A DNA stretch of 64,000 nt from Hyphomicrobiales bacterium (GTDB lineage Bacteria; Eisenbacteria; RBG-16-71-46; SZUA-252): assembly GCA_050257555.1 (NCBI GenBank), contig JBLMXB010000028.1, positions 1,149-65,148 on the forward strand, written 5' to 3'. Shown here in pieces: positions 2,531 to 62,207 of the stretch. A program made the position numbers and the translations under genes. Numbering within the stretch: the stretch's first letter is position 1; the number at the start of each line of letters is the position of its first letter. A model generated the notes under the pieces. That model did no database searches, had not been told where the DNA came from, and saw only the letters and a list, made by a program, of their open reading frames with translations.

Positions 2531-3838
2531 CTAGAAGTGGTACGTCGCCGAGACGCGGTTGAACGGCGCGCGCTCGTTCCCCGACAGCGCCCAGCCGCCC
2601 GTGAGCGGGAACTGGTCGTTGATCACCATGTCGACGTCGAGGTTGTTCCAGCGGATGCCGGCCCCGAGGTTCATGTTGAAGTCGGAGAAGCGCTCCTTGA
2701 CCGTGTACGTATTGGTCGGAGCGGCGAAATCGGAGCCTTCCTCCTTGTACATCATGTGGCCGCGGCTCGCGCCGATGCGGAGCTTGAGCCACTTGGTGGC
2801 GTCGGTCTCGATCGCCGCGAAGACCATCGGGATGGCCGTCGTCTTCTGCGTGATCGACTTCGTCGCGCCGCTGGCGACCGCGTCGTTGTTGTCGGTGCGG
2901 TCATACGCGTGCTTCGACTGCGAGACGACCACGCCCCAGAGGAGCAGGTTGTTGTCGTTCACGCGCATGTTGTCCGAGATGCCGGCGCCGTAGTTCTTGT
3001 ACGTCTCGTCGGCGCTGCGGGCCGTCGGCGTCACGCCGGTCACTTCCCACGACAGGTCGTCGTTCACGTACCAGGCCGCCGGGTACCAGGTGTGCGTGTC
3101 GCCGCGATGGAGGATGCCGCGGGCCGCGACCATGTACGACGCGTTCCCGCCGTCCTTCCACGTCTCGCCGCCGGCCGGGGTCTCCGTCCGGTCGAGCGTG
3201 TACCGGCGATAGGTGGCCACGCCCTCGATCCGGTCGTCGTTCTTCAGGTGGAGCGCGATCGCGGGGCTGATCCCCCACGTATTGATCTCCACGCCGGTCG
3301 AGGTGATGACGTTATCGAAGAAGTTGGCCCCGAACGGATACGGATCGAACGAGAAGTCCTCGCCGCGCGCGCTGTAGCTCGACGGCGCGTTGTCCGAGAA
3401 CTCGAAGTACGAGTTCGTGATGTCGAGACGAACCGCGAAGTCGAGGTTCGTGAACGCCTTGCCCCAGATCATGTCGAGCTGCTCGTTGTTCAGGTTGCTC
3501 GACGCGGTCGTCGCGTTGAGCGCCGACTGCTTCATCTGGAAGGCGATGGCGCCGAAGCGCGGGAAGTTGCGGATCACCGTGTAGCTCTTGTCGAGCGCGG
3601 ACGCCGAATTGACGTTGCCGTTCGGGTCGTTCCCCAGCTCGGCCAGCACCAGGTTGTTCTGGCGCACGACCGACGTCGGGTAATAGAAGATGTTGGCGTA
3701 GTCATCGGTGAACTGGCTCGTGTACGGCGTGCTCAAGCCCATGCCCTCGACGCGCGAGAGCGAAGCCTGGCTGGTCCCCGCGGTCATCGCGAGGAGCGCC
3801 ACGGCGCCGAGCACCACAATCAGCTTGCGCTGAAACAT
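2531..3838 (-). CDS. Outer-membrane beta-barrel protein (porin/FadL/PorV-like, family not resolved)
   Basis: 435 aa with signal peptide MFQRKLIVVLGAVALLAMTAGTSQA. Composition is rich in N/S/T/D/Y/G with alternating beta-strand pattern, and it ends in the aromatic terminus ATYHF, as expected for BAM substrates. RBS AAGGAGG precedes the ATG. The N-terminal GMGLSTPY..DDYANIFYYPTSV loosely resembles the FadL/PorV hatch motif (inference). Confidence 0.75.
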   Translation of the reverse strand: MFQRKLIVVLGAVALLAMTAGTSQASLSRVEGMGLSTPYTSQFTDDYANIFYYPTSVVRQNNLVLAELGNDPNGNVNSASALDKSYTVIRNFPRFGAIAFQMKQSALNATTASSNLNNEQLDMIWGKAFTNLDFAVRLDITNSYFEFSDNAPSSYSARGEDFSFDPYPFGANFFDNVITSTGVEINTWGISPAIALHLKNDDRIEGVATYRRYTLDRTETPAGGETWKDGGNASYMVAARGILHRGDTHTWYPAAWYVNDDLSWEVTGVTPTARSADETYKNYGAGISDNMRVNDNNLLLWGVVVSQSKHAYDRTDNNDAVASGATKSITQKTTAIPMVFAAIETDATKWLKLRIGASRGHMMYKEEGSDFAAPTNTYTVKERFSDFNMNLGAGIRWNNLDVDMVINDQFPLTGGWALSGNERAPFNRVSATYHF

Positions 3839-8907: not shown

Positions 8908-8981
8908 TGGGGGATCGTCCAGTGGTAGGACACGTGGCTCTGGACCACGGTACAGGGGTTCGAATCCTCTTCCCCCAGCCA
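8908..8981 (+). tRNA. tRNA-Gln (anticodon CUG), CCA encoded
   Basis: Hand-folded cloverleaf. Acceptor TGGGGGA/TCCCCCA, D arm GTCC-AGTGGTA-GGAC, anticodon stem CGTGG/CCACG with loop CTCTGGA (CTG at positions 34-36), T arm AGGGG-TTCGAAT-CCTCT, discriminator G, then CCA. Confidence 0.85.
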
Positions 8982-9022
8982 CATCTTCTCAGGACGCGAG
9001 ACGCGACCATGATGCCGGTTGT

Positions 9023-9097
9023 GGCGCTATCGTCTAGGGGTTAGGACGGGTGGTTCTCAGCCATCAAACCGGGGTTCGAATCCCCGTAGCGCTACCA
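9023..9097 (+). tRNA. tRNA-Glu (anticodon CUC), CCA encoded
   Basis: Hand-folded cloverleaf. Acceptor GGCGCTA/TAGCGCT (with a G1-U72 wobble), D arm GTCT-AGGGGTTA-GGAC, anticodon stem GGTGG/CCATC with loop TTCTCAG (CTC at positions 34-36), T arm CGGGG-TTCGAAT-CCCCG, discriminator A, then CCA. Confidence 0.85.
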
Positions 9098-42717: not shown

Positions 42718-45700
42718 TCAGCGAATGATGGCGACGCGTCCCGTGAAGGTCTTCCCCGCCGCGCTCATCCGGATGAAGTAGACGCCCGACGCCACCGCGG
42801 TCCCGGCGGACGTGCGGCCGTCCCACGTGATCGAGTGGTAGCCCGGCGTGAACGGATGGGTCGCCACGTTGCGGACCAAGGCGCCCCGCACGTCGTAGAC
42901 CTTGAGATCGACCGGCGCGTCACGCGGGATCGCGAGCATCATCCGGACGTCGGACTGGGACATCGGATTCGACCCGATGATCCGGAACGCGAACTCCTTC
43001 GGCAGCGCCGTCTCGCCGTCCTCCACGGCCGTCGGAGTCGATTCGAGCACGGTGAAGGGCTCGGAGATCCACGATCCCATCGCCCCCAGACCGTCCACCG
43101 CCACCAGCTCCAGGATGCCGTTCGTCGTCTCCGGGCCGATCACGAGGAACGAGTAGTTGTGCCCCTGGATCTCCGGCGCGACCATCCGCCAGCTCTCTCC
43201 GCCGTCGAACGAATACCAGAGCTCGTAATAGAGCGCGGCGTGACCGTTCGGGTCGTCCCAGGCCAGGTTGATGTGCGCTCCCGCCGGATACGACTTCGGC
43301 TGGCGCGCCTCTCCCTTGTTCTCGTCGAGCCCCGACGACGACACCATCTTCGGCTTGAGGACGCGGACGTAGTCGGTCCCCTGGAACCACGAGGCGTCCT
43401 TCACCTCGCCGATCATCTCCACGGCGACGTTGTCCCCGGTCGGCAGGATGCCGACCAGCTGGATCCGCGGGAACTTGAACGCCGCCTCCTCGAGTCCGTT
43501 CCCGTCCTTGTCGTCGTAGCCGATCGGGGCGTCCGGAACGACGCCGATCGTCCGGTTCAGGAGCACGGTCGACGGATCGATCTCCCGGGCTTCGTAGCCC
43601 GCGATCGGCTCCGCCAGCCCGCTGACCCAGTTGCCGTTCGACGCCCGGTTCAGCGTGTTCGGATCGAGATCGACCATCGCGCCCACGACGCCGACGTGCA
43701 GGTTCGCCTCGACGTCGATCAGCGGGTCCGTCAGGTCGTTGCACTGGATCCGGAGCGCCCCCGAGTAGTCGCCGTCGGCGAGGCCGGTGGCCGTGAACGT
43801 CACGTTCATGTCGACGTGCCCGCCGGCCGGCACGACGCCGGAATTCGGGGAGACCGTGAGCCAACCCGGGAGCCGCGAGAACCGGAGCCGCAGGTTGTTC
43901 TTCACGTAGGCCTGGTTGTACGCGACCTGGAGCCCGATGTCCTTCGTCGCGTTCTGGATGCCGATGGTCGCCTCGTTCAGGCGGGTCCCGTCCATCTGCA
44001 GGTATTGGAAGTCGATCGTCCCGCTCGGATAGAGGATCACCTCGAACGTGTACGGACCGCCACTCGAGTAGCGCGGCACCCCCGCGTACTCCACGATGAA
44101 CCGCGTCCCGTCGTACTGCGCGTAGACGGCCCCGGCGCTACGCAGGTCGAGGTCGTCCCAGAACGGCGCGAGCAGGTTCTCCGGCGTGGAGGTGCTCGTG
44201 TTCGGGAGCGTCGTGTTCGAGAGCGACGTCGCGCTGCTCGTGAACGAGAGCCACCCGTTGGAGCAGACGCGGTACTCGGTGAACGTGTTCCCGTAGAACG
44301 GGAACGGGAACGGCAGCGGGAACGGTCCGACGTTCTGATCGTCGCCGTTCACCGGCAGGTGCGTCCCCGTGCTCGTGATGTCGACCCAGTCGAACGGCGT
44401 GCCCTGCACCGGATCGTCGCTGTCCGCGTACCGGTAGCCGTACGCGTCGGGTCCGCCCGAGGCCAGGGCGGCGGGTCCGCCCGGCTCGCCGGGCTGATCC
44501 TTCCCCGTCTCGGCCGACGGATGCGCCTGCACGGCCGCGGGGAGCATCACCAGCCCCTCCGCGCTCCAGGTCAGATCGCTCCCGCCGGTGTTGTCCATCC
44601 GGAGGATCTTGGTCTTCGTCTCCGCCGTCGGCCCCAGCGTCGTGGCGAGCGCCGCGCGCACGGAGTTGGCCCCCATCGAAGCCTCGGGCGGGATGTACGC
44701 CACGCCCGTGAGGCCGACCGACAGGGCGCCGTTCGGATCGTTGCTCTCGACCAGGAGCTGTCCCAGGCACGGGTTGGGCGGGACGCACGGATTGGGCGGG
44801 CGGAACCGCACGGTCAGCGCCCTCCCCGCCCGGTTTCCGAGCGTGAACGGAACCGCGGGCGGATCGACCAGCTGCCAGCTCGGATCGACGATCGAGAGGG
44901 AGCGGATCTCCACCACGTCGCTGCCCGAGTTCTGGATGTCGACGGTCAGCTCGCGTTCCTGCCCGATGTACAGCCACCCGAAGTCGAGCGCCGCGGGCGT
45001 CGCCGCCACGTGCGGCGTGCCGACGGCGACGAGCGTCGCCGGCAGGTTCGTGACGCCCTCGTCGGGATCGTTGCTCGCCAGCCGGAGCGTGCCGGCGTAC
45101 GTGCCTCCGAAGAGGTCCGCGGAGTTGAACGTCACCTGGATCGGCAGCGAGCCTCCCGGCGGAATCGTGCCCGACGACGGGCTGGCGACGAGCCAGTCGG
45201 GGGTCGTGCGGAACTCGATCGCCAGGTTGTCGTGCACGTACGCGTCGTTGTAGACGACCGTGAGGCCGTCGTCCTTCGTCGCGTTCTGGATTCCGATCGT
45301 GGCCTCGTTCAGCCGCGTCCCCTGCATCGACAGGTACTGGAACATGATCCGACCGGACGGATAGAGGATCACCTCGAACGTGTACGGTCCGCCGGAGGAG
45401 TATCGCGGCACGGCCACGAACGAGAGGATGAACCGCGTGCCGTCGCGGTACGTGTAGAGCCGCTGGACCGAGCCGGGATTCAGATCGTCCCAGAAGGGAG
45501 CGAGCAGGTTCTCCGGCACGCCGCTTCCGCTGTTCGGGAGCGGCTGGTTCGTCAGCGCGGTGAGCGTGCTCGTGAACGAGAGCCACCCGTTCGTGCAGAC
45601 GTTGATCGTGTTGAACGCGTTCCCGTAGAACGGGAAGTCGAAGCCGATCGGGACGCCCTGGAGATTGGCGTCGTCCCCCGTCAGGGTCAGCGGGGTTCCG

Positions 45701-48700
45701 ATCGCGGTGAGGTCGACCCAGTCGAAGGCCGGCCCGTTCGGATCGTCGCTATCCCGCCACGTGTACCCGAACATGTCGGGCCCGCCGGTCCCCCGGATCC
45801 CCTGCCGCGGATCGACGGCCTCCTTCCCGAGGACGAGCTCGTCGTACGTCGGCACCGACGTCGCGGTGAGCGTCGTGCCCACGACGAACGTCAGGTCGCT
45901 CCCTCCCTGGTTCTCGACCGACACGGTCTGCATGGACGAAGCCGGGATCGGGAGCGTCGCCGAGAGCGACGCCGGCGAGACGGCGATGTCCGGCGCGACC
46001 AGCCCGGCTCCGGAGAGCGCGACCGGGTAGGCCGGCGTGTCGGGATCGTTGGAATGGATGGTCAAGGTCGCCGGCCTCGGTCCCGCCGTGGGCGGCCCGA
46101 ACGAGACGAAGACGACGGCGTTCGCGAGCGGCGGGACCGTGAAGCTCCGGTTGTCCACGCCGTACGCGGGATCGCTCATCGTGATGTCGCTCACGACGAG
46201 CGCGTCGGTGCCCCGGTTCTGGATCGTCAGCTCCCGGATCCCGGGGAATCCGATGAAGACGTTCCCGAATTCCACCGGATCGGGCGTCGCCGCGATGTCC
46301 GGTACCCCCGTCACGGTCAGTCGCGCCGGGACCTCGAGCTCTGGCAGGACCGGGTCGTTCCCCTGGATCCGCACCGCGCCCTCGTAGACGCCGCCGAACA
46401 GGTCGGCCGCGTTGAAGCCGACGTTCAGGTCGACGAACCCGCCCGGAGGCACCGTCCCCGACGCCGGGCTCACGGTGAGGAACCGGGCCGGCGGACGGAA
46501 GCGGACCGCGAGGGAGTTCTTGATGTACGTCGCGTTGAACACGACCTGGAGCCCGTCGTTCCGATCCTGGTTCTGGATGCCGATCGTCCCGCTCGTCTTC
46601 AGCGCCATGTTCATCGTCAGATACTGGTAGAGGATCGTGCCGTTGGGATAGAGCACGATCTCGAACGTATTCGTTCCGGTATCGCTGAGGCGGGTCACGT
46701 CCTGGTACTGGATGACCAGCTTCGTGCCGTCGTTGTAGTAGTACGCGTGCTGGACGGTCGAGAAGTTGAAGTCGTCCCAGTAGACCGCGAGCAGGTTCTC
46801 CGGCACCGTGCTCCCGGTGTTCGGGATCGTGGTGTTCGTGTACGTGGTCTTCGTGCTCGTGAACGAGACGAAGCCGTTCGTGCAGATCCGGAACGAGTCG
46901 AACGAATTCCCGTAGAACGGGAACGAGAACCCGATCGGATAGGGACCGGTGTTCTGGTCGTCCCCCGTCATCGGGATCTGCGTCCCCACGGTCCGGACGT
47001 CGACCCAGGAGAACGCCGGTCCGTCCGGCTCGTCGCTGTCCTTGTACGTGTAGCCGAACACGTCGGGGCCGCCGGACTTGAGCGGGGCGGGACCCGACTG
47101 CACGTCCGCCTCTCCCTTGCCGACCGGCACGTTGTCCGCGTCGGTCCCGACCGTCACGGAGCCCGACGGCGCGTTCGTCACGGTCTCGGCCGTGAACGTG
47201 AAGTCGCTCCCTCCCGAGTTCGACACCCGGAGCGGGCGGCTCGTCGCGGTGTTCGTCAGCAGAGCGACGTCGAATGCGGTCGGTGACACCGAGAACGACG
47301 GCGCCGGCACGGCCGCGCCCGTCACCGCTACCGCGAGCGACGGGGCGTCCGGGTCGTTGCTCTCGATCGTGAGCGTCGCCGCGAGGGCGGCCGGCGCGGT
47401 CGGAGCGTACGTGACCGTGACCGCCTGGCCCGAGAGCGGGTGGAGCGTGAACGACGTCGGCGACGCCGTCAGCGTCCCGTCGCTGGACTGGATCCCGGTC
47501 ACCACCAGGTCATCGGTCCCCGGATTGGTGACCAGGAGGGTCTTCTCCGGCGTCGCGCCGACGAAGATGGTCCCGTAGTCGAGCGACGTCGGGTTCACGG
47601 CGATGTCGGGCGCGCCGATCACGTGGAGCGACGCGGGGAGCGAGACGTTCGGCTGTGCCGGGTCGTTGCTTTGGATCGGGATCGTCCCCTGGAACGTCCC
47701 GCCGTTCAATCCCGCGGCGTCGAACCGGACCTGGACCGTGGCGCTCTGGCCGGCCAGGACCCGCCCCGACGTGGGGGTGACGGAGAGCCACTGACGGAGC
47801 GGCGCGATCCGCACCGCGAGCCCGTCCCGCAGATACGTCGTGTTGAACGCGACCGTCAATCCGACCGACTTCGACGCGTTCTGGATCCCGGCCGTCGCGC
47901 TGTTCGTGGGCGAGCCGAGGGAGAGGTACTGGTACCGGATCTCCCCGTTCGGATAGAGGATCGCCTCGAACGTGTACGGGCCGCCCGTCTGGTAGTGGTT
48001 GACGTCGACCCACGCGACGATGAACCGCGCCCCGTCGTTGTACGTGTAGACGTGACCGGTGGCGGCGAAGTCGAGGTCGTCCCACATCGGCGCCACGAGG
48101 TTGGCCGGGGCGCCGCTGTTCGGGAGCGGCTGGTTGTCGTACGACGTCGCGCCGTCGCTGAACGAGAGCCACCCGTTCGTGCAGACGCGGACGTCGGTGA
48201 ACGTGGCCCCGTAGAACGGGAAGTCGAAGCCGATCGGGATGGCGGGAGACGTCGCGTCGTCTCCGGAGAGCGGCTGGAGATCGCCGACGGCGGTCAGGTC
48301 GACCCAGTCGAACGCCGGGCCGCCGGGCTCGTCACTGTCGAGCCAGCGGTACCCGTACCCGTCCGGACCACCCTTGCTCTCCGCGACCGGCCCCACCCGC
48401 GGGTCGGTCTCCCCCTTCGCGAACGGCTGGTAGTCGTAGACCACCGGCTGCGAGAAGGCGAGCTCGGGCGTCGGGATCTGGTAGTCGAGCGTCCCCTGCG
48501 CCACGTTCTGGATCGTGAGGGTCTGCGTGGCCGTCGCGCCGGTCAGGAGGTCGGCCGAGAACGAGGGAGGCGACGCCGCGATCATCGGCGCGCCGAGCGT
48601 CGTCCCCGTCGCCACGTTCGACAGTCCGCCGGCGTTGTTGAACTCGTCGAACGCCTTGATCGCGAAGTAGTACGGCGTGCTGAAGGCCAGGCCGCCCACT

Positions 48701-50217
48701 TCGAACGACTCGGCGGCTCCCGCCGACTGGGGATCGGGACCGGCCGCCAGGGTCGCCGACGGGAAGGTCGCGTCCGTGATCGGCGCGGTCGAGTACCGGA
48801 TCTCGTACCGGGTCGCGCGGCCGGTGTTGCCGTCGTCGCCCGTCGCGGTCCAGGTGAGCCGCATCGTGTTCGAGCCGGGGTCGCTGGTCATGAGATCGGC
48901 GATCGTCCCCGGCGGCGTGTCGTCGGGCTCCGCAATCGTCATGAACGCGTTCAGCCGGCCGTTCGTGACGCACTTCCCCTGGAGGGACGGCTTCACGTCC
49001 GCGGCGTTCAGGACCAGGTTCTTGATCTGGAGGTTCGGGACGTTTGGATACCGCCCCATGGCCAGCGCCACGACGCCCGCGACGTGCGGGGTCGCCATCG
49101 ACGTGCCCGAGAGCAGGCCGTAGCTGTTCCCGGGGAGCGTCGAGAGGATGCTGACGCCCGGGGCGGCGATGTCGACCGTCGTCGCGCCGTAGTTCGAGAA
49201 CGACGCGAGGTTGTCGTTGTTGTCGGTCGCGGCGACCGAGATGATGTACGGCGTGTCGTACGCGGCCGGGTACTGAGGCGTGATGTCGCTGTTCTGCCCG
49301 GAGTTCCCCGCGGCGGCCACGAAGAGCTGGCCCGCCGCGCCGGCGGCGTTGATCGCGTCGAGCAGCGCCTGCGAGAAACCGCCGCCGCCCCAGGAGTTGC
49401 TGGTCAGGCGGACGCCGACCGTGATCGCGTACTGGATGCCGAGGATCGCGTCCGACGTCGAGCCGCTGCCCCCCGCGCTCAGGAACTTGATCGCGACGAT
49501 CTTCGCCTGCCAGTTGACGCCGACGACGCCCGTGTTGTTGTTCCCCGCCGCGGCGATCGTGCCCGACGTGTGGGTCCCGTGGCCGTTGTCGTCGAACGGA
49601 TCGCCGTCGTGGTTCACGAAGTCGTATCCGTGCACGTCGTCGACGTACCCGTTCCCGTCGTCGTCGATCCCGTTGCCGGGGATCTCGCCCGGGTTGGTCC
49701 AGATGTTGGCGGACAGGTCCGGGTGGTTGTAGTCGACGCCCGTGTCGATCACGCCAACCTTGAGGTTCGGGTCACCGGTGAACTGGTCCCACGCGAGCTG
49801 GGCGCTGATGTCCGCCCCGGGCGTGCCGCCGGTCTGGCCGGTGTTGTGGAGACCGTACATCTCCGGATACCGCGGATCGTTCGGCGCCACGTCGGCCGTC
49901 AGGACGTAGTTCGGCTCGATGTAGACGACGTTCGGGTTGTGGGCGTACCGGGCGATGGCCGCTTCGACCGAGACGCCGCTCAACTTCCAGTGCTCGGCGC
50001 CGATGAAGTCGAACCGGTGTGCGACGGCGGCGTGCAGGTCGCGCTGGATCTGGCCGCGCGAGGAGGCCGCGGCGCCGGGACGGAACTTGATGATCACTTC
50101 ACCGGGAATGGTGCGGGCGTCGGGGGCCGCCGCCCGGGCGACCGGGGGACCGAGGAGCAGGAATACGAGCAGCAGGGACACGAACGACGGCACAAGCCAT
50201 CGCGGCTGGGAATGCAT
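42718..50217 (-). CDS. Giant secreted subtilisin-like (S8) serine protease with I9 propeptide, FN3-like domain, four tandem modules of about 435 aa, and FlgD-Ig/T9SS-type C-terminal domain
   Basis: ATG 50217, preceded by AAGGAGG. Signal LVPSFVSLLLVFLLLGPPVARAAA. Catalytic triad contexts: VGVIDTGVDYNHPDL, DNGHGTHTSGTIAA and LSGTSMATPHVAGV. Four modules each begin GGPD-x-(Y/F)GY and contain FPFYG, CTNGW(L/V)SF, WDD(L/F), GIQN and SNDP motifs. C-terminal tail: VDLKVYDVRGALVRNV...WDGRTSAGTAVASGVYFIRM...RVAIIR. 2499 aa. Confidence 0.9.
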   Translation of the reverse strand: MHSQPRWLVPSFVSLLLVFLLLGPPVARAAAPDARTIPGEVIIKFRPGAAASSRGQIQRDLHAAVAHRFDFIGAEHWKLSGVSVEAAIARYAHNPNVVYIEPNYVLTADVAPNDPRYPEMYGLHNTGQTGGTPGADISAQLAWDQFTGDPNLKVGVIDTGVDYNHPDLSANIWTNPGEIPGNGIDDDGNGYVDDVHGYDFVNHDGDPFDDNGHGTHTSGTIAAAGNNNTGVVGVNWQAKIVAIKFLSAGGSGSTSDAILGIQYAITVGVRLTSNSWGGGGFSQALLDAINAAGAAGQLFVAAAGNSGQNSDITPQYPAAYDTPYIISVAATDNNDNLASFSNYGATTVDIAAPGVSILSTLPGNSYGLLSGTSMATPHVAGVVALAMGRYPNVPNLQIKNLVLNAADVKPSLQGKCVTNGRLNAFMTIAEPDDTPPGTIADLMTSDPGSNTMRLTWTATGDDGNTGRATRYEIRYSTAPITDATFPSATLAAGPDPQSAGAAESFEVGGLAFSTPYYFAIKAFDEFNNAGGLSNVATGTTLGAPMIAASPPSFSADLLTGATATQTLTIQNVAQGTLDYQIPTPELAFSQPVVYDYQPFAKGETDPRVGPVAESKGGPDGYGYRWLDSDEPGGPAFDWVDLTAVGDLQPLSGDDATSPAIPIGFDFPFYGATFTDVRVCTNGWLSFSDGATSYDNQPLPNSGAPANLVAPMWDDLDFAATGHVYTYNDGARFIVAWVDVNHYQTGGPYTFEAILYPNGEIRYQYLSLGSPTNSATAGIQNASKSVGLTVAFNTTYLRDGLAVRIAPLRQWLSVTPTSGRVLAGQSATVQVRFDAAGLNGGTFQGTIPIQSNDPAQPNVSLPASLHVIGAPDIAVNPTSLDYGTIFVGATPEKTLLVTNPGTDDLVVTGIQSSDGTLTASPTSFTLHPLSGQAVTVTYAPTAPAALAATLTIESNDPDAPSLAVAVTGAAVPAPSFSVSPTAFDVALLTNTATSRPLRVSNSGGSDFTFTAETVTNAPSGSVTVGTDADNVPVGKGEADVQSGPAPLKSGGPDVFGYTYKDSDEPDGPAFSWVDVRTVGTQIPMTGDDQNTGPYPIGFSFPFYGNSFDSFRICTNGFVSFTSTKTTYTNTTIPNTGSTVPENLLAVYWDDFNFSTVQHAYYYNDGTKLVIQYQDVTRLSDTGTNTFEIVLYPNGTILYQYLTMNMALKTSGTIGIQNQDRNDGLQVVFNATYIKNSLAVRFRPPARFLTVSPASGTVPPGGFVDLNVGFNAADLFGGVYEGAVRIQGNDPVLPELEVPARLTVTGVPDIAATPDPVEFGNVFIGFPGIRELTIQNRGTDALVVSDITMSDPAYGVDNRSFTVPPLANAVVFVSFGPPTAGPRPATLTIHSNDPDTPAYPVALSGAGLVAPDIAVSPASLSATLPIPASSMQTVSVENQGGSDLTFVVGTTLTATSVPTYDELVLGKEAVDPRQGIRGTGGPDMFGYTWRDSDDPNGPAFDWVDLTAIGTPLTLTGDDANLQGVPIGFDFPFYGNAFNTINVCTNGWLSFTSTLTALTNQPLPNSGSGVPENLLAPFWDDLNPGSVQRLYTYRDGTRFILSFVAVPRYSSGGPYTFEVILYPSGRIMFQYLSMQGTRLNEATIGIQNATKDDGLTVVYNDAYVHDNLAIEFRTTPDWLVASPSSGTIPPGGSLPIQVTFNSADLFGGTYAGTLRLASNDPDEGVTNLPATLVAVGTPHVAATPAALDFGWLYIGQERELTVDIQNSGSDVVEIRSLSIVDPSWQLVDPPAVPFTLGNRAGRALTVRFRPPNPCVPPNPCLGQLLVESNDPNGALSVGLTGVAYIPPEASMGANSVRAALATTLGPTAETKTKILRMDNTGGSDLTWSAEGLVMLPAAVQAHPSAETGKDQPGEPGGPAALASGGPDAYGYRYADSDDPVQGTPFDWVDITSTGTHLPVNGDDQNVGPFPLPFPFPFYGNTFTEYRVCSNGWLSFTSSATSLSNTTLPNTSTSTPENLLAPFWDDLDLRSAGAVYAQYDGTRFIVEYAGVPRYSSGGPYTFEVILYPSGTIDFQYLQMDGTRLNEATIGIQNATKDIGLQVAYNQAYVKNNLRLRFSRLPGWLTVSPNSGVVPAGGHVDMNVTFTATGLADGDYSGALRIQCNDLTDPLIDVEANLHVGVVGAMVDLDPNTLNRASNGNWVSGLAEPIAGYEAREIDPSTVLLNRTIGVVPDAPIGYDDKDGNGLEEAAFKFPRIQLVGILPTGDNVAVEMIGEVKDASWFQGTDYVRVLKPKMVSSSGLDENKGEARQPKSYPAGAHINLAWDDPNGHAALYYELWYSFDGGESWRMVAPEIQGHNYSFLVIGPETTNGILELVAVDGLGAMGSWISEPFTVLESTPTAVEDGETALPKEFAFRIIGSNPMSQSDVRMMLAIPRDAPVDLKVYDVRGALVRNVATHPFTPGYHSITWDGRTSAGTAVASGVYFIRMSAAGKTFTGRVAIIR
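43545..48585 (-). repeat. Four in-frame tandem coding repeats (period about 1.29-1.33 kb) inside the S8 gene
   Basis: The GGPD anchor codons lie near 48368, 47068, 45781 and 44451. DNA-level similarity is visible, for example gaacgagagccacccgttcgtgcagac and cccgtagaacgggaa recur near 48165, 46865, 45575 and 44255. The boundaries are approximate. Confidence 0.8.
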
Positions 50218-57040: not shown

Positions 57041-57481
57041 ATGGGACGAGTCGCCGACCTGCTCCGCGCCAAGGGCTCCGCCATTTATACCATTTCCTGC
57101 GACCAGACGGTGTACGAAGCGATCGTCGAGATGGTCCGTCACAACGTCGGTTCCCTGGTCGTACTCCAAGGCGACGATCCGGTGGGCATCGTCACGGAGC
57201 GGGACTACCTGAAGGAGATCGCGCTCCGGGGCCGCACCTCCCGCGCGACGGAGGTGCGGGAGATCATGAGCCGGACCGTCATCGTGGTGGATCCGGACCG
57301 CTCGCTCGACGACTGCATGGCCATCATGACGGAGCGCCGGGTCCGCCACCTCCCCGTCCTCGAGCACGACCGCCTGGTGGGCGTCATCTCGATCGGGGAC
57401 GTCGTCAAGGGACTCGCCAAGGACCGGCAGGTCGAGATCCGGTACCTCACCGACTACATCACGGGGAAATATCCGGCATGA
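57041..57481 (+). CDS. CBS domain pair protein
   Basis: Start ATG 57041, preceded by AGGAGG. Two CBS repeats: [21 protein letters not shown] and [21 protein letters not shown]. 146 aa. Confidence 0.8.
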
Positions 57482-58011
57482 GCTCCACGCGGACGTGGAT
57501 CGGAATCGGGCTCGCGGGCGCCGTCGCCGCCCTCGCCCTCGCGGCGTGGTCGGCGGCGGGCGCCGCGACCGGTGCCCTCCGCGTCTATTCCTTCGAGCGA
57601 AAGGGGTACGTCATGGTCGACAAGGTCGTGAAGAACGACGCCGAGTGGCGGAAGGAGCTTCCACCCGATGTCTTCCGGATCACCCGCCAGGGGGGCACGG
57701 AGCTCGCGTTCACCGGCAAGTACTGGGACAACCACGATCACGGAATCTACCGGTGCGCCGACTGCGGGAACGACCTCTTCACGTCGGACACGAAGTTCGA
57801 CAGCGGCACCGGATGGCCCAGCTTCTGGAAGCCGATCGCGCCGGAGAACGTCGACACGAAGAACGACCTGAGCCTCGGCATGGTGCGCGACGAGGTCCGC
57901 TGCGCGCGCTGCGGCGCCCACCTCGGACACGTCTTCGACGACGGGCCGAGGCCGACCGGGCTCCGCTACTGCATCAACTCCGCCGCCCTCGCGTTCACGA
58001 AGACGAAGTAG
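57478..58011 (+). CDS. msrB: Peptide-methionine (R)-S-oxide reductase MsrB with N-terminal signal/anchor
   Basis: ATGA overlap with the CBS gene. Signal [24 protein letters not shown]. Two zinc CxxC pairs (CADCGN, CARCGAH) and the catalytic RYCINS. 177 aa. Confidence 0.88.
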
Positions 58012-58050: not shown

Positions 58051-59481
58051 TCACCCCTTCACGCAGAGGATCGGCGTGAGCTTCGCCACGATGCGCGCGA
58101 GCCCTGCCCGCTCCGCCGCCTCGACCACCGCGGTGACGTCCTTGTACGCGCCGGGCGCCTCCTCCGCGACGCCGCGCGGCGACGGGCTCCGGATCTCGAT
58201 CCCGCGAAGCCGGAGCGTCTCCATCACGTCCCGTCCCCGCCACCGCTTGAGCGCGGCCGTGCGGCTCATCGCGCGCCCGGCCCCGTGGCAGGCCGACCCG
58301 AACGAGAGCGCCTCGCTCTCCTTCGTGCCGACGAGGATGTAGGAGGCCGTCCCCATCGTCCCGCCGATCAGCACCGGCTGGCCGGTCTCGCGGAAGAGGC
58401 CCCGGAGCCCGGGGTGGCCGGGTCCCCAGGCGCGGGTCGCGCCCTTGCGATGGACGTAGAGGCGCCTCGTCGCGCCGTCCACCCGGTGCGCCTCGACCTT
58501 GCACGTGTTGTGCGAGACGTCGTAGAGGAGCGGGAGCGTCGTGCCGGGAAGCACGCGCTCGAACGCCCGGCGCGCCAGGTGCGTCACGATCTCCCGGTTC
58601 GCGAGCGCGCAGTTGATCGCCGCGCGCATCGCGCCCAGGTACTCCTGGCCGAGCTCGGAGCGGATCGGCGCGCACGCGAGCTCCCGGTCGGGGAGCGTGA
58701 TGCCGTGCCCGCCCGCGGCCGCGACCATCCGCTTCAGGTAGTCGGTGCCGATCTGGTGGCCGAGCCCGCGCGAGCCGCAGTGGATCGACACGACCGCGTC
58801 GCCGGTCGCGAGGCCGAACGCGGCGGCGGCGGCGTGGTCGCCGATCGCGGCGACCTCCTGCACCTCGAGGTAGTGGTTCCCCGATCCGAGCGTGCCCATC
58901 TCGTCCCGCTGGCGCTTCTTCGCGTGATCCGATACGGCGTCCGGGCGCGCGCCCTCCATCCGGCCGTCCTCCTCGATCCGGCCCAGGTCCTCGGCTCGAC
59001 CCCACCCGCGCTCCACGGCCCACGCGGCGCCGCCCTCGAGCATCCGCTCCATCTCCCTGGCGTCGAGGCGGATCGTCCCCGTGCTCCCGACGCCCGCGGG
59101 GACCGCGCCGAAGAGCGCGTCGGCGAGATCGGAGACCCGCGCGCGCACGTCGTGCGCCGTCCGCTCCGTGAGGAGCGTGCGGACGCCGCAGGAGATGTCG
59201 AAGCCGACGCCGCCCGCGGACACGACTCCGCCTCGGTCCGGATCGAACGCGGCGACGCCGCCGATCGGGAATCCGTAGCCCCAGTGCGCGTCCGGCATCA
59301 CGTACGCCGCCTGCTCGATGCCCGGGAGCTTCGCGACGTTCGTCGCCTGCTCGGCCACCTTCTCGTCCATGTCGCGGAGGAGCGCCTCCGTCGCGTAGAG
59401 CACGGCCGGCACGCGCATCGCCCCGCGGCGCGGGATCCGCCACGCGCACGCCGCCGTCCGCTCGAATCGGGTCGGGTCCAT
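58051..59481 (-). CDS. rtcB: RNA 3'-phosphate/2',3'-cyclic-phosphate ligase RtcB
   Basis: Start re-set to ATG 59481 (MDPTRFERTAACAWRIP). Family motifs: MPDAHWGYGFPIGGV, GGVGFDISCG, LGSGNHYLE, HCGSRGLGHQ, SHN and CHGAGR. 476 aa. Confidence 0.92.
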   Translation of the reverse strand: MDPTRFERTAACAWRIPRRGAMRVPAVLYATEALLRDMDEKVAEQATNVAKLPGIEQAAYVMPDAHWGYGFPIGGVAAFDPDRGGVVSAGGVGFDISCGVRTLLTERTAHDVRARVSDLADALFGAVPAGVGSTGTIRLDAREMERMLEGGAAWAVERGWGRAEDLGRIEEDGRMEGARPDAVSDHAKKRQRDEMGTLGSGNHYLEVQEVAAIGDHAAAAAFGLATGDAVVSIHCGSRGLGHQIGTDYLKRMVAAAGGHGITLPDRELACAPIRSELGQEYLGAMRAAINCALANREIVTHLARRAFERVLPGTTLPLLYDVSHNTCKVEAHRVDGATRRLYVHRKGATRAWGPGHPGLRGLFRETGQPVLIGGTMGTASYILVGTKESEALSFGSACHGAGRAMSRTAALKRWRGRDVMETLRLRGIEIRSPSPRGVAEEAPGAYKDVTAVVEAAERAGLARIVAKLTPILCVKG

Positions 59482-59507
59482 CGTCTCTCTCCCGCGTCGC
59501 GACGGGG

Positions 59508-60611
59508 TCAGACGTCGACGACGCACTGCGCGAGCCACGTCCCGTCCGCCTCGCGCGCCACGCGGAGCGACGTGTACGTGGCCCCCTTCACCTCCACGGC
59601 CGGCTCGTGCTCGGACGGACGCACCGGCTCCCCGGCGGCGACGCCGACGAGCCCCTCGGCGCCGAGCGTCACGTCGAACGAGCCGAAGAGCATCCGGCGC
59701 GTCGCCATCTCGTAGACCACCGCGTTCAGCCAGTCGACGAGGAGCACCTCGTCGTCGGGCGGATCGGGCATCGGAACGCGGAGCGTCACGCGCTCCTCCG
59801 CGCGGACCGAAGCGGGGTCGACGAGCACGGCCGTCAGCGCCAGGGCGGCGCCGGCGAACGCCGCCTCCTTCGTGGCGCCCCGCCCGCGCACGCCGACGTC
59901 GGCGCCGTGCTCGAAGTGCTCCCAGCGCGGCCCGGACGCGCCGGAGGTCTCGACGCGCGGCGCCCCGGCCCGTGCGGCCGCCGCGCCGAGGAGCCGCACG
60001 ACCTCCTCGTCGCTCACCTGGCGGAAGTCGTCGAAGAAGGCGCCGACGGCGAGGAACCGCTCCGGCGTCCAGAGGACCACGACCTCGTCCGCCTCGCGCT
60101 CGAGACGCCGCACGGCCTCGGGCGGCGCGACGCCCGCGGCGGCGATCAGAAGCGCCGGCCCCTGGGCGCGGATGAGCCGGAGCGCCGCGGCGAGCGTGGC
60201 GCCCGTCGCCACGCCGTCGTCGACGACCACGACCGTGCGGCCGGCGGGGTCGAGGGGGCGCCGCGCGGGCGTGTAGCGCTCGCGCCGCTCGAGGAGCGCG
60301 CGCCACTGGCGCCGCCGCTCCTCCTCCAGATACCGCTCGGTGAGTCCGATCTCCTCCGCGTTTCCGTGGAGCGTCATCCGCCCCGTCTCGTCCACGGCGC
60401 CGACGGCGAGCTCCGGCTGTCCCGGCGCGCCGAGCTTGTGGACCAGGACCACGTCGAGGTCCCCCTCGAGCGCGGCCGCGACGATCGCGGCCATCGGCAC
60501 CGCCCCGCGCGGCACGCCGAGCACGAGCGGCCGCGCGCCCCGGAGCCGCTCGAGGCGGCGGGCCAGGAGGCGCGCGGCTTCCTCCCGATCGCGGAACGGC
60601 TCGCGGTTCAC
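59508..60611 (-). CDS. Phosphoribosyltransferase-domain / archease fusion protein
   Basis: The GTG start at 60611 overlaps the TGA of the upstream UbiA gene (GTGA). N-terminal part: FRDREEAARLLARRL...LVLGVPRGAVPMA...RTVVVVDDGVATGATLAAA, which contains the PRPP loop. C-terminal part: WEHFEHGADVGVRGRGATKEAAF...VEVKGATYTSLRV...WLAQCVVDV, the archease pattern. No stop codon lies between the two parts. 367 aa. The rest of track ORF 59508..62168 is a false extension. Confidence 0.75.
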   Translation of the reverse strand: MNREPFRDREEAARLLARRLERLRGARPLVLGVPRGAVPMAAIVAAALEGDLDVVLVHKLGAPGQPELAVGAVDETGRMTLHGNAEEIGLTERYLEEERRRQWRALLERRERYTPARRPLDPAGRTVVVVDDGVATGATLAAALRLIRAQGPALLIAAAGVAPPEAVRRLEREADEVVVLWTPERFLAVGAFFDDFRQVSDEEVVRLLGAAAARAGAPRVETSGASGPRWEHFEHGADVGVRGRGATKEAAFAGAALALTAVLVDPASVRAEERVTLRVPMPDPPDDEVLLVDWLNAVVYEMATRRMLFGSFDVTLGAEGLVGVAAGEPVRPSEHEPAVEVKGATYTSLRVAREADGTWLAQCVVDV

Positions 60612-61546
60612 GGCGCCACCCCCGCGGCGCGTCCGGCGCCGGCCAGGAGGAGCCCCGCCCCCGCGCCGGCGGCGTAGAGCAGGAACGACCGGAGCGTCCA
60701 GACCTGTGCCGGCACGATCCGGCTCGTGGTCTCGGGGTCGGCGAGGAGGCGGCGCGCGGCCGCCGCGGCGTGCGGAAGCCCCGCGAGCCCGAAGAGGAGC
60801 CCGGAGGGCGCGCCGAAGGCGACGAGGAGCACGAGGCCTCCGTATGCCGCCGCCACGATCCAGCCGAAGACGCGGCTCGCCGCCCGGCGTCCGAGACGGA
60901 CCACGAGCGTCCGCTTTCCCGCTTCGCCGTCGGCGCGGCAGTCCGGGAATTCGTTGATCCAGAGGAAGGCCGCGATGAGGAGGCCGAGGGGGGCCGACGC
61001 CAGGAGCACGTCGCTCCCGACGCGGCCGCGCTGGACGAGGTACGTGCCGCACGCGATGACCGGGCCGTACACGACGGCCACGGCGAGCTCGCCCAGGCCG
61101 CGGTAGGAGAGACGGAGCGGCGACGCGTGATAGAACCACGCGAGCGCGACGCCCAGGAACCCGAACGCGAGCACGCGCGGCTCGCGGGCCAGCACGATCG
61201 CGAGGCCCGCGGCGATGCCGATCGCGTACGCCGTCGCCGCGATCGATGCCGTCTCGGCGCGGGTCAGGAGCCCGTCGACGAGGACCCGCTTGCCTCCGGA
61301 GAAGGGGCTGCGCTCCTCGGGCCGGACGTTCGCGTCCGCACCGCTCGCGAAGTCGACCAGCTCCCCCGAGGCGTTCTTCGCCGTCTCGATGGCGAAGATG
61401 CCGGCGATGGTGAGGAGGAGCCATCCGACGGCGAGCGGGCCGTCGCGCGCGGCGGCCGCCGCGCCGATCGTCATCGAGGCCGCGGACGCGAGCGTGATCT
61501 TCGGATCGGCCAGGCGATGGAGCCCACGCCACCAGTCGCCGCTCAT
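60608..61546 (-). CDS. UbiA-superfamily (MenA-like) membrane prenyltransferase
   Basis: 312 aa with about 8-9 TM helices. Asp-rich motif context AKNASGELVDFASGAD, then FSGGKRVL, and a second cytoplasmic-loop region WINEFPDCRADGEAGKRTLVVRLG, typical of the family. Confidence 0.7.
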   Translation of the reverse strand: MSGDWWRGLHRLADPKITLASAASMTIGAAAAARDGPLAVGWLLLTIAGIFAIETAKNASGELVDFASGADANVRPEERSPFSGGKRVLVDGLLTRAETASIAATAYAIGIAAGLAIVLAREPRVLAFGFLGVALAWFYHASPLRLSYRGLGELAVAVVYGPVIACGTYLVQRGRVGSDVLLASAPLGLLIAAFLWINEFPDCRADGEAGKRTLVVRLGRRAASRVFGWIVAAAYGGLVLLVAFGAPSGLLFGLAGLPHAAAAARRLLADPETTSRIVPAQVWTLRSFLLYAAGAGAGLLLAGAGRAAGVAP

Positions 61547-61706
61547 CGGTTCCCCCCGCGGGGATCGCCCCCGATCCCTCCTTGAGCGAACACCCGCCCC
61601 CCGTGCCGGTCAAGGGGAACCCGATCCACCCGGGCCGCGCTCCGGCGCATCGCGGGGGATTCCCGCGGCGCCTCGAGGGGTATATCGTGGAGGCAGGCAT
61701 TCCTCT

Positions 61707-61731
61707 CCGATCGGAACGACGCGCCGATCGG
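61707..61731. promoter_or_regulatory. Two copies of the 8-bp palindrome CCGATCGG, 17 nt centre to centre, upstream of the USP gene
   Basis: Copies at 61707..61714 and 61724..61731, read directly. They lie 42-66 nt upstream of ATG 61773. A TATATC hexamer lies about 25 nt further upstream. Confidence 0.3.
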
Positions 61732-61772
61732 ACGATTCCTCGGGCCGGCGGCGTCCGGCGAAAGGAGACGTC

Positions 61773-62207
61773 ATGAAGGTCCTCGTCGGAGTCGACGACT
61801 CGCCGTTCTCGGAGGCGGCGATCGAGTACGCGAAGCGCGCGGCCTGGCCGCAGGGGACGGAGTTCCTGGTGCTCTCCTCCAGCCCTCCGATCTGGGTGGG
61901 ACCGGGCGAGGCGGTCGCCGTGGGCCCGATCGCGCAGCTCAACCAGGAGCAGCAGGACTACCACCGGTCGATCGCCGAGAAGGCGTCGAAGTCGCTGACC
62001 GGCTCGGGCCTCGTGGCGAAGGCGATGACCGGACTCGGCGACCCGCGTTCGGCGATCGTCGACGCCGCGACCCGCGAGCGGGTCGATCTCGTGATCGTCG
62101 GATCGCACGGGCGGTCGGGATTCAAGAAGCTCCTGCTCGGGAGCGTCGCCTCGCACGTCGTGGCGCACGCACCGTGCAGCGTCCTCGTGGTGAAGCAGCC
62201 CGCCTGA
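61773..62207 (+). CDS. Universal stress protein (UspA family)
   Basis: Start ATG 61773, preceded by AAAGGAGA. Sequence MKVLVGVDDSPFSEAAIEYA...VDLVIVGSHGRSGFKKLLLGSVASHVVAHAPCSVLVV includes the ATP-binding G-2x-G-9x-G(S/T) motif. 144 aa. Confidence 0.88.
   Translation: MKVLVGVDDSPFSEAAIEYAKRAAWPQGTEFLVLSSSPPIWVGPGEAVAVGPIAQLNQEQQDYHRSIAEKASKSLTGSGLVAKAMTGLGDPRSAIVDAATRERVDLVIVGSHGRSGFKKLLLGSVASHVVAHAPCSVLVVKQPA

Follow-up and report, generated by a model that had tools for sequence, protein, structure and literature searches.

The window analyzed here is a stretch of 64,000 nucleotides from contig JBLMXB010000028.1 (assembly GCA_050257555.1, positions 1,149 to 65,148), deposited under the name of a Hyphomicrobiales bacterium and placed by GTDB in the Eisenbacteria. 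Towards its end, on the minus strand, lies a gene whose predicted product joins a type-I phosphoribosyltransferase (PRTase) domain to an archease domain, and this gene is followed by that of the RNA ligase RtcB. The features at the core of the locus are as follows.

59508..60611, minus strand: complete open reading frame (ORF) of the fusion, with a GTG start at 60611, 367 codons and a TGA stop at 59508-59510.
59964..60596, minus strand: predicted type-I PRTase domain of the TT1426 family, aa 6-216 (PF00156, 1WD5 and Foldseek).
60195..60236, minus strand: predicted binding loop for 5-phosphoribosyl pyrophosphate (PRPP), TVVVVDDGVATGAT, aa 126-139, read from the translation.
59928..59963, minus strand: predicted disordered interdomain linker, aa 217-228 (AlphaFold2 confidence and alignment of 20 fusions).
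59511..59927, minus strand: predicted archease domain, aa 229-367, with the free carboxylate of V367 at its end (PF01951 and 4N2P).
58051..59481, minus strand: RtcB RNA ligase gene, 476 aa, with an ATG at 59481 (PF01139, E 6e-166, full length).

Translation of 59508-60611 on the minus strand gave 367 codons followed by TGA with no internal stop, and the product contains the motifs FRDREEAARLLARRL and RTVVVVDDGVATGATL, the linker LLGAAAARAGAPRVETSGASGPR, and WEHFEHGADVGVRGRG, VEVKGATYTSLRV and AQCVVDV. An earlier note on this DNA, made from the letters alone, had described a 367-aa frame running from GTG 60611 with no stop between its parts; our translation and the public gene call on the contig, which is the identical 367-aa protein (P0001; 100% identity and coverage), both agree with it. 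The in-frame G+C content at third codon positions (GC3) was 0.95-0.97 across the PRTase, linker and archease segments (0.95 in the linker), which fits one continuous reading frame. Taken together, these data confirm, at the level of the sequence, that the two domains are predicted to be made as one genuine polypeptide.

The GTG at 60611 shares a GTGA overlap with the TGA of an upstream UbiA-family gene. The mechanically called ORF of the fusion stays open upstream to 62168 (59508-62168, 886 aa); we rejected this extension as an Arg/Pro-rich by-product of the 72% G+C content, overlapping the real UbiA gene in another frame. The mechanical ORF that contains RtcB (58051-60306, minus strand, 751 aa) likewise overshoots the real start, and long Arg-rich ORFs are abundant here on both strands as an effect of the same base composition. 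Because 72% G+C inflates ORFs, the length of an ORF alone is misleading in this region.

The N-terminal half matched the Pfam family Pribosyltran (PF00156) over aa 11-170 (E 5.4e-19, 68.5 bits against a cutoff of 26.3). Its closest solved structure was TT1426 of Thermus thermophilus (PDB 1WD5; E 1.8e-43 over aa 6-208), to which the modeled domain aligned in Foldseek with a template modeling score (TM-score) of 0.82 (E 3.8e-20, 49% identity); all Foldseek TM-scores quoted here are normalised by target length. The pattern of a PRPP loop, consisting of a hydrophobic strand, two acidic residues and xxx-T-G-x-T, was found in VVVVDDGVATGAT (aa 127-139). Within the loop, D131, G133, A135 and G137 did not vary among 20 aligned fusions, and conservation was 90% or more at D132 and T136; in 172 standalone homologues the same four invariant residues reached 100% and T136 99%, and over fused and standalone members T136 ranged from 97 to 99%. 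The invariants of the family as a whole (K59, P63, E67, R109, R110, R125, D131-G-x-A-T-G137, D175, F196 and D201) were conserved equally in the 172 standalone and 30 fused domains, suggesting that the fused copy is not a degenerate pseudo-enzyme.

None of the NCBIfam equivalogs for named PRTases reached its cutoff for the N-terminal domain (bits against cutoff: upp 28.3/208, HGPRT 24.4/181, APRT 21.7/170, pyrE 19.7/107, Prs 30.6/296), suggesting that it is a type-I PRTase without assigned specificity. The structural neighbours that followed TT1426 in Foldseek were mostly hypoxanthine-guanine PRTases (HGPRTs), with TM-scores of just 0.45-0.58, and they provide a weak lead towards a purine as the possible substrate. 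Members of the family carry only the source-given name 'phosphoribosyltransferase family protein', which offers no functional hint.

With TT1426 the domain shares about 49% identity over its whole length, the PRPP loop and the C-terminal motif AVGxxYxDFxxVxDE(E/D)V; it differs in that TT1426 is a standalone 208-aa protein, a structural-genomics 'predicted phosphoribosyltransferase' (PDB: 'hypothetical protein'). With the characterised type-I PRTases (HGPRT, APRT, UPRT, OPRT and PRPP synthetase) it has the fold and the PRPP-binding loop in common, but its score lies far below every equivalog cutoff. The window PRTase also has a helical insertion of about 40 residues (aa 85-113 in the model), and neither this insertion nor the TT1426-family-specific invariants K59, P63, E67, R109 and R110 could be assigned a counterpart in the characterised PRTases.

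The C-terminal half matched the Pfam family Archease (PF01951, SHS2 fold) along the whole model (positions 1-136 of 136) with its aa 230-367, at E 2.6e-32 and with 112.4 bits where the cutoff is 25. The earlier note had named both domains, and the Pfam search puts both far above the gathering thresholds. Compared with solved structures, the domain matched the archease of Pyrococcus horikoshii (4N2P, E 5.7e-18) and 1JW3 (E 7.7e-10), and Foldseek gave TM-scores of 0.86 for 4N2P, 0.82 for 1JW3, 0.79 for 8BTX and 0.75 for human archease bound to RTCB (8ODP/8ODO). In the alignment, H235, D238, K342, D366 and V367 correspond to H9, D12, K117, D141 and I142 of the P. horikoshii protein; mutagenesis of the latter showed that H9, D12, K117, D141 and the C-terminal I142 are required for RtcB activation (PMC3973293). 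The human RTCB-archease structures show a third Mn, Mn(C), which is bound by D51, D178 and the C-terminal carboxylate of I179 and which binds the gamma-phosphate of the GTP analogue; K156 touches the leaving phosphate (PMC10944509). None of H235, D238, K342 and D366 varied in the 20 fusions, and each of these proteins has VDV as its last residues before the stop. Because the C-terminal carboxylate is a metal ligand, a partner can be attached only at the N-terminus, which explains the order of the domains. The fused archease reaches 70% identity with standalone bacterial archeases and so has not diverged from them. Judged by its sequence, then, the C-terminal domain is a canonical archease that keeps all residues known to activate RtcB, and by analogy with the characterised proteins its predicted role in the fusion, RtcB activation, is well supported.

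The RtcB gene begins 26 nt past the fusion stop on the same strand, with a Shine-Dalgarno-like run, GGGAGAGAG, ahead of its ATG. Its product also matches the NCBIfam RtcB models, and it aligned with TTHA1785 of T. thermophilus (2EPG) at E 9e-151 and with P. horikoshii RtcB at E 2e-150. The T. thermophilus enzyme requires archease for multiple turnover (PMC4604427), and the P. horikoshii enzyme depends on it as well (PMC3973293). These data suggest that the window RtcB, being very close to dependent enzymes, is of the archease-dependent type, and that the fusion and RtcB form a co-transcribed operon. With RtcB placed 26 nt downstream, a context that the earlier note lacked, the fusion is a variant of the known archease-RtcB operon and not an odd fusion. 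In common with the archease-RtcB operons of P. horikoshii and T. thermophilus (the 'tRNA splicing operon') and with human Archease-RTCB, it has a full-length archease with the same metal-binding and Lys/His residues, encoded directly upstream of rtcB on the same strand. It differs from them in that the archease is the C-terminal domain of a 39-kDa PRTase polypeptide and not a free 16-kDa protein, and in that a UbiA-family gene is included in the window lineage. By every feature testable here, the window locus is predicted to belong to the archease-RtcB operon class, with a PRTase of the TT1426 subfamily that is none of the named PRTases.

A search of 5.8 billion protein clusters recovered about 30 full-length fused homologues with both Pfam domains, which are 45-77% identical and originate from assemblies of NCBI, JGI, ENA and Logan. 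Their named sources were Candidatus Eisenbacteria, Ectothiorhodospiraceae, Chromatiales and other Gammaproteobacteria, and the fused form was also that of the two closest relatives, at 77% and 75% identity. Synteny with the window is complete in the metagenome-assembled genome GCA_036380835.1 (Ca. Eisenbacteria; P0003, locus L081, 75% identity), which carries Usp, then UbiA, fusion and RtcB, then MsrB and CBS, then CarA and CarB; this conserved block suggests that the window derives from a relative of that lineage. RtcB lies directly downstream in all seven fusion loci examined (the window and six others), five of which have unrelated flanks. In the databases these proteins are labelled 'archease' (NCBI) or 'predicted phosphoribosyltransferase/SHS2 domain-containing protein' (JGI). 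The earlier note's remark that a PRTase-archease had no prior characterisation still stands: our literature search found no paper that pairs archease with a phosphoribosyltransferase, although an earlier comparative-genomics mention may exist. The architecture is already present in public databases under automatic names but, as far as checked, without a described study.

We also analyzed a genome scan of one genome per species, in which the fusion protein was the query. None of the 80 loci obtained encodes a fusion; the PRTase was always a separate gene. Four of them (L001, L014, L025 and L066), which tblastn had aligned over residues 2-367, were rejected as fusions because of an in-frame stop between the genes. 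In these four loci, from a betaproteobacterium (L001), Sulfuricaulis (L014 and L066) and a Pseudomonadota metagenome-assembled genome (L025), the order is PRTase-stop-archease-RtcB, and the ATG of the archease gene follows 3-10 codons after the PRTase stop in the same frame, from which we conclude that the fusion came about when the stop codon between these adjacent operon genes was lost. The PRTase domain of the fused protein P0087 was 55-57% identical to the unfused L014, L025 and L066 and 30-42% identical to other fused copies; the unfused L001 was 58-60% identical to the fused P0023 and P0043; and the fused archease domains of P0043, P0188 and P0229 were just 25-40% identical to the rest. 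Because fused and unfused states are interleaved in these pairwise identities, the fusion must have arisen, or split again, at least twice. A neighbour-joining tree of the PRTase domains, midpoint-rooted and without support values, scattered the fused domains; we prefer the pairwise identities.

The AlphaFold2 model of the fusion had a mean predicted local distance difference test score (pLDDT) of 90.4 and a predicted TM-score (pTM) of 0.60. Block means of pLDDT were mostly above 90 in both domains, and residues 217-226 fell below 50. The linker spans about 12 residues in the window protein, and among the 20 fusions it varies by about 0 to about 35 extra residues, in whole codons always.

The association of the PRTase with RtcB extends to loci where the genes are unfused. 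Archease-RtcB lay within 6 kb of the PRTase in 9 of the 80 genome-scan loci. Because the query was the fusion, the ranking favoured 4 of these 9, the other five being L002, L008, L022, L051 and L063; without the favoured loci the linkage was 5 of 76, still far above the 0.3% or so at which, by our own estimate, a single-copy gene would fall within a given 12 kb. The gene orders varied: archease-RtcB-PRTase (L002), PRTase-metallo-beta-lactamase (MBL) hydrolase-archease-RtcB (L022) and RtcB-PRPP synthetase-PRTase (L051). From the archease side, the sample was six standalone archeases, the closest that are encoded on contigs above 120 kb; contig size was the sole criterion. RtcB was downstream in all six; a complete TT1426-type PRTase lay within about 1 kb in two and a PRTase fragment about 3.5 kb away in one; a dienelactone hydrolase (DLH)-type gene was found at three, and a PRPP-synthetase-like gene at one.

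Several kinds of gene recurred as neighbours of the PRTase.

DLH-type hydrolase: 41 of 88 PRTase loci.
AmmeMemoRadiSam genes: 27 of 88 PRTase loci.
Nicotinate PRTase (NaPRTase): 11 of 88 PRTase loci.
PRPP-synthetase paralogue: 11 of 88 PRTase loci (within 6 kb).
CBS protein: 9 of 88 PRTase loci.

The PRPP-synthetase neighbours are the best evidence, though indirect, that the PRTase domain uses PRPP. Examples of PRPP-synthetase-like genes are found at L051 (5150-5959) and L086 (3376-4203), the latter being the divergent neighbour of a fusion gene. The AmmeMemoRadiSam neighbours (e.g. L040 8419-9795 and L032 7413-8630) appear by eye to encode a MEMO1-like and AMMECR1 fusion and a radical-SAM enzyme.

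The Sulfuricaulis-type loci L014, L025 and L066 carry two TT1426-type PRTase paralogues each. The one upstream of archease-RtcB is 33-36% identical to the window domain; the second, beside a DLH hydrolase on the opposite strand, is 42-43% identical to it. AmmeMemoRadiSam genes lie between the paralogues and a nicotinate PRTase lies downstream. This pair of paralogues looks like subfunctionalisation.

An MBL-fold gene with an HxHxDH motif, RNase Z-like by eye, lies directly downstream of the PRTase at L022 (6671-7687), L034 and L064, and at L022 it sits between the PRTase and archease-RtcB. A standalone archease-RtcB locus, L094, includes RtcA (RNA 3'-phosphate cyclase; 2749-3834) together with an upstream MBL-fold gene and a DLH, and thereby resembles the E. 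coli-type rtcBA operon in some features and the archease type in others.

The PRTase-DLH fusions and pairs have the same PRTase family as the window, DLH being its commonest neighbour and a fusion partner on either side; DLH is also found beside several archease-RtcB loci. They differ from the window, where the partner is archease and there is no DLH gene nearby. Rv0571c of Mycobacterium tuberculosis probably has the PRTase-DLH architecture and may belong to the same family, and the DosR regulon presumably contains RtcB as well. Rv0571c itself is listed in the literature as part of the DosR dormancy regulon. A literature search for Rv2630 together with archease found nothing.

Around the operon, the window contains the following genes.

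60608..61546, minus strand: UbiA/MenA-like prenyltransferase gene (PF01040, E 2.8e-26; NCBIfam MenA-like models below cutoff).
61773..62207, plus strand: universal stress protein (Usp) gene (PF00582, E 3.8e-30), divergent from the operon.
57041-57481, plus strand: CBS-pair protein gene (from the PF00571 annotation of the same gene in the syntenic L081).
57478-58011, plus strand: MsrB/SelR gene (from the PF01641 annotation of the same gene in L081).

The UbiA neighbour recurs in the syntenic Ca. Eisenbacteria locus L081 and not in the other fusion loci, and is thus lineage-specific. The Usp gene is kept in L081, and a Usp is also near the fusion in L086. The CBS and MsrB genes, which share 4 nt (ATGA), are convergent with RtcB. 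A scan of 57.4-62.4 kb found no sigma-70-like promoter and one weak terminator-like hairpin, directly past RtcB (58025-58010, minus strand). No Rfam match to an associated non-coding RNA (a Y RNA or tRNA-like RNA, as in some RtcB operons) was found near the locus; the sole Rfam/ARAGORN matches in the window were adjacent tRNA-Gln(CTG) and tRNA-Glu(CTC) genes at 8908-9097 on the plus strand. Membership in an anti-phage defence system was rejected, as the only PADLOC match was marginal, to ShosT through the PRPP loop (E 7e-4, 17.5 bits), and PADLOC had no match for the RtcB or UbiA proteins. Elsewhere in the window, a 2,499-aa ORF (42718-50217, minus strand) has, by eye, a signal-peptide-like N-terminus, the subtilisin-type motifs DTGVD..., HGTHTSG and GTSMATPHVAG, at least four repeated modules with '...DSDEP.GPAF.WVD...' and a C-terminal sorting- or Ig-like segment.

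We propose that the fusion is a two-headed accessory factor of RtcB that is encoded together with it, and we put the probability of this at roughly 0.6. By analogy with the characterised complexes, the archease tip (H235, D238, K342, D366 and the V367 carboxylate) would dock in the active-site cleft of RtcB and supply a third metal site that holds the gamma-phosphate and pyrophosphate of GTP, driving guanylylation of the RtcB histidine; RtcB would thereby become a multiple-turnover ligase for RNA ends bearing a 3'-phosphate or 2',3'-cyclic phosphate and a 5'-OH. An apparently intact TT1426-type PRTase head would be tethered to this archease by the disordered linker of about 12 residues. More tentatively, and going by genomic context, the PRTase head may be active, converting PRPP to a nucleoside 5'-monophosphate with a purine as the likeliest base, and may couple nucleotide salvage or handling to RtcB activation; this possible step would take place in a response of the stress or dormancy type, when nucleotide pools run low and RNA cut by ribonucleases is joined again. 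The neighbourhood is of a stress type, with Usp, CBS and MsrB in the window and PRPP synthetase, NaPRTase and DLH at other loci.

Several observations weigh against a dedicated role at RtcB. About 70 of the 80 standalone PRTase loci are not beside RtcB, and most standalone PRTases adjoin DLH-type hydrolases, AmmeMemoRadiSam genes or CBS proteins. The family is also fused in other ways, as PRTase-DLH, DLH-PRTase, CBS+DUF2267-PRTase and PRTase-erythromycin-esterase-like proteins, and these varied neighbours and partners suggest that its core function is not specific to RNA ligation. In an exhaustive HMMER search of 1.84 billion representatives at 50% identity, 1,518 representatives of the TT1426-type family scored below E 1e-30, and 4 of the best 150 cover both halves, which makes the family large and its fusion to archease rare. 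The 120 closest archease relatives listed were all standalone; P0001-P0003, whose archease domains are 71-100% identical to the query, are absent from those 120, probably by a ranking or selection effect, so that fused and standalone counts there should not be over-interpreted. The AlphaFold2 model shows no confident packing between the domains (pTM 0.60). As for the chemistry, RtcB requires GTP and the PRTase would yield a monophosphate, so direct supply of the cofactor would need further kinases. In our own alignment of the PRPP loop with the HGPRT motif, the catalytic Asp corresponds to the invariant A135, which makes the purine lead weak. To our knowledge, there is no experiment on record for any PRTase of the TT1426 family.

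The fusion is real and recurrent but rare, and it may reflect co-expression only. This explanation, which we regard as doubtful and yet worth serious weight, holds that the fusion is a near-neutral means of co-expressing adjacent genes of a stress/dormancy island and that the domains work independently: archease would serve RtcB, and the PRTase would carry out general salvage or act on an unrelated metabolite with a DLH-type hydrolase. It would account for the rarity of the fusion, for a PRTase family that mostly occurs apart from RtcB and is also fused to several other partners, and for a linker that is disordered and variable between domains without confident packing; the unfused genes, lying 3-10 codons apart in the same frame, could be fused by a single mutation. 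It accounts less well for at least two independent fusion or fission events, for the maintenance of the fusion over 45-77% sequence divergence and in two phyla, and for immediate same-strand adjacency in several gene orders. Nor does it easily explain why Sulfuricaulis-type loci dedicate one PRTase paralogue to the archease-RtcB operon, which suggests subfunctionalisation.

At the other extreme, the TT1426-type PRTase could be a third, mechanistically integrated component of the RtcB system, with PRPP chemistry physically coupled to RtcB activation, an idea going beyond that of an accessory factor and one that we consider unlikely. In one version the archease tip would stabilise the metal-pyrophosphate leaving group for the tethered PRTase as it does for RtcB; in the other the PRTase would make or handle a guanine nucleotide at the ligase.

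Less probable still is a regulatory sensor, in which the PRTase fold would not mainly be an enzyme but would sense PRPP, GMP or (p)ppGpp and control whether the archease tip can reach RtcB, with nucleotide or alarmone status thereby switching RNA re-ligation. PurR and PyrR use the PRTase fold for ligand sensing and HPRTs are targets of (p)ppGpp; the nearest characterised structural neighbours of the domain include HPRT entries, the PRTase is tethered to the N-terminal archease strand that leads into the metal-binding tip, and the family co-occurs or is fused with CBS and Usp ligand-binding modules. However, the fused copies keep all of the catalytic-looking invariants, the dedicated PRPP-synthetase paralogues nearby argue for substrate consumption, and AlphaFold2 predicts no docked, autoinhibited conformation.

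It is improbable to a greater degree that free archease is also, or only, made, by initiation at GTG codons for V199 or V205 or by proteolysis of the linker, in which case the covalent fusion would not be the working species; such an arrangement is compatible with the other explanations. The earlier note had pointed to GTGs in the C-terminal helix of the PRTase as the sole in-frame alternative starts ahead of the archease domain, and V199 and V205 are indeed the only ones; V205 is preceded by GAGGAGG, and a disordered linker would be accessible to proteases. The GAGGAGG, however, ends 2 nt before the GTG, too near for normal Shine-Dalgarno spacing, and encodes a Glu-Glu of the PRTase helix that is conserved in the family and common to standalone TT1426. 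None of the 20 fusions has a Met or other conserved start ahead of the archease domain, whereas in unfused relatives a clear ATG stands 1-4 codons ahead of the conserved Trp, and a product begun at V199 or V205 would carry a fragment of the PRTase helix.

A sequencing or assembly artefact, in which a stop or frameshift between two genes was lost, would be in keeping with the Proteobacteria that keep the genes separate with a stop in the same frame, but it is untenable given about 30 fused homologues in independent assemblies from four data sources (including the two closest relatives and the syntenic genome), linkers that differ always by whole codons and an in-frame GC3 of 0.95 through the linker.

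Were the fusion no more than a neutral means of co-expression, it would amount to a minor annotation note. As a guilt-by-association signal, the repeated fusion and conserved adjacency nominate the TT1426 PRTase family, which is widespread and has one solved structure, as a partner of the RtcB ligase. Should the PRTase prove to be an integrated component of the RtcB system, this would be the first function for an orphan PRTase family with a structure available since 2004, and it would link RNA re-ligation to nucleotide salvage in stress/dormancy islands. The PRPP synthetase, NaPRTase, DLH, CBS and Usp neighbours suggest that RNA re-ligation is embedded in a nucleotide-salvage/stress module, and such a module would bear on bacterial persistence and dormancy.

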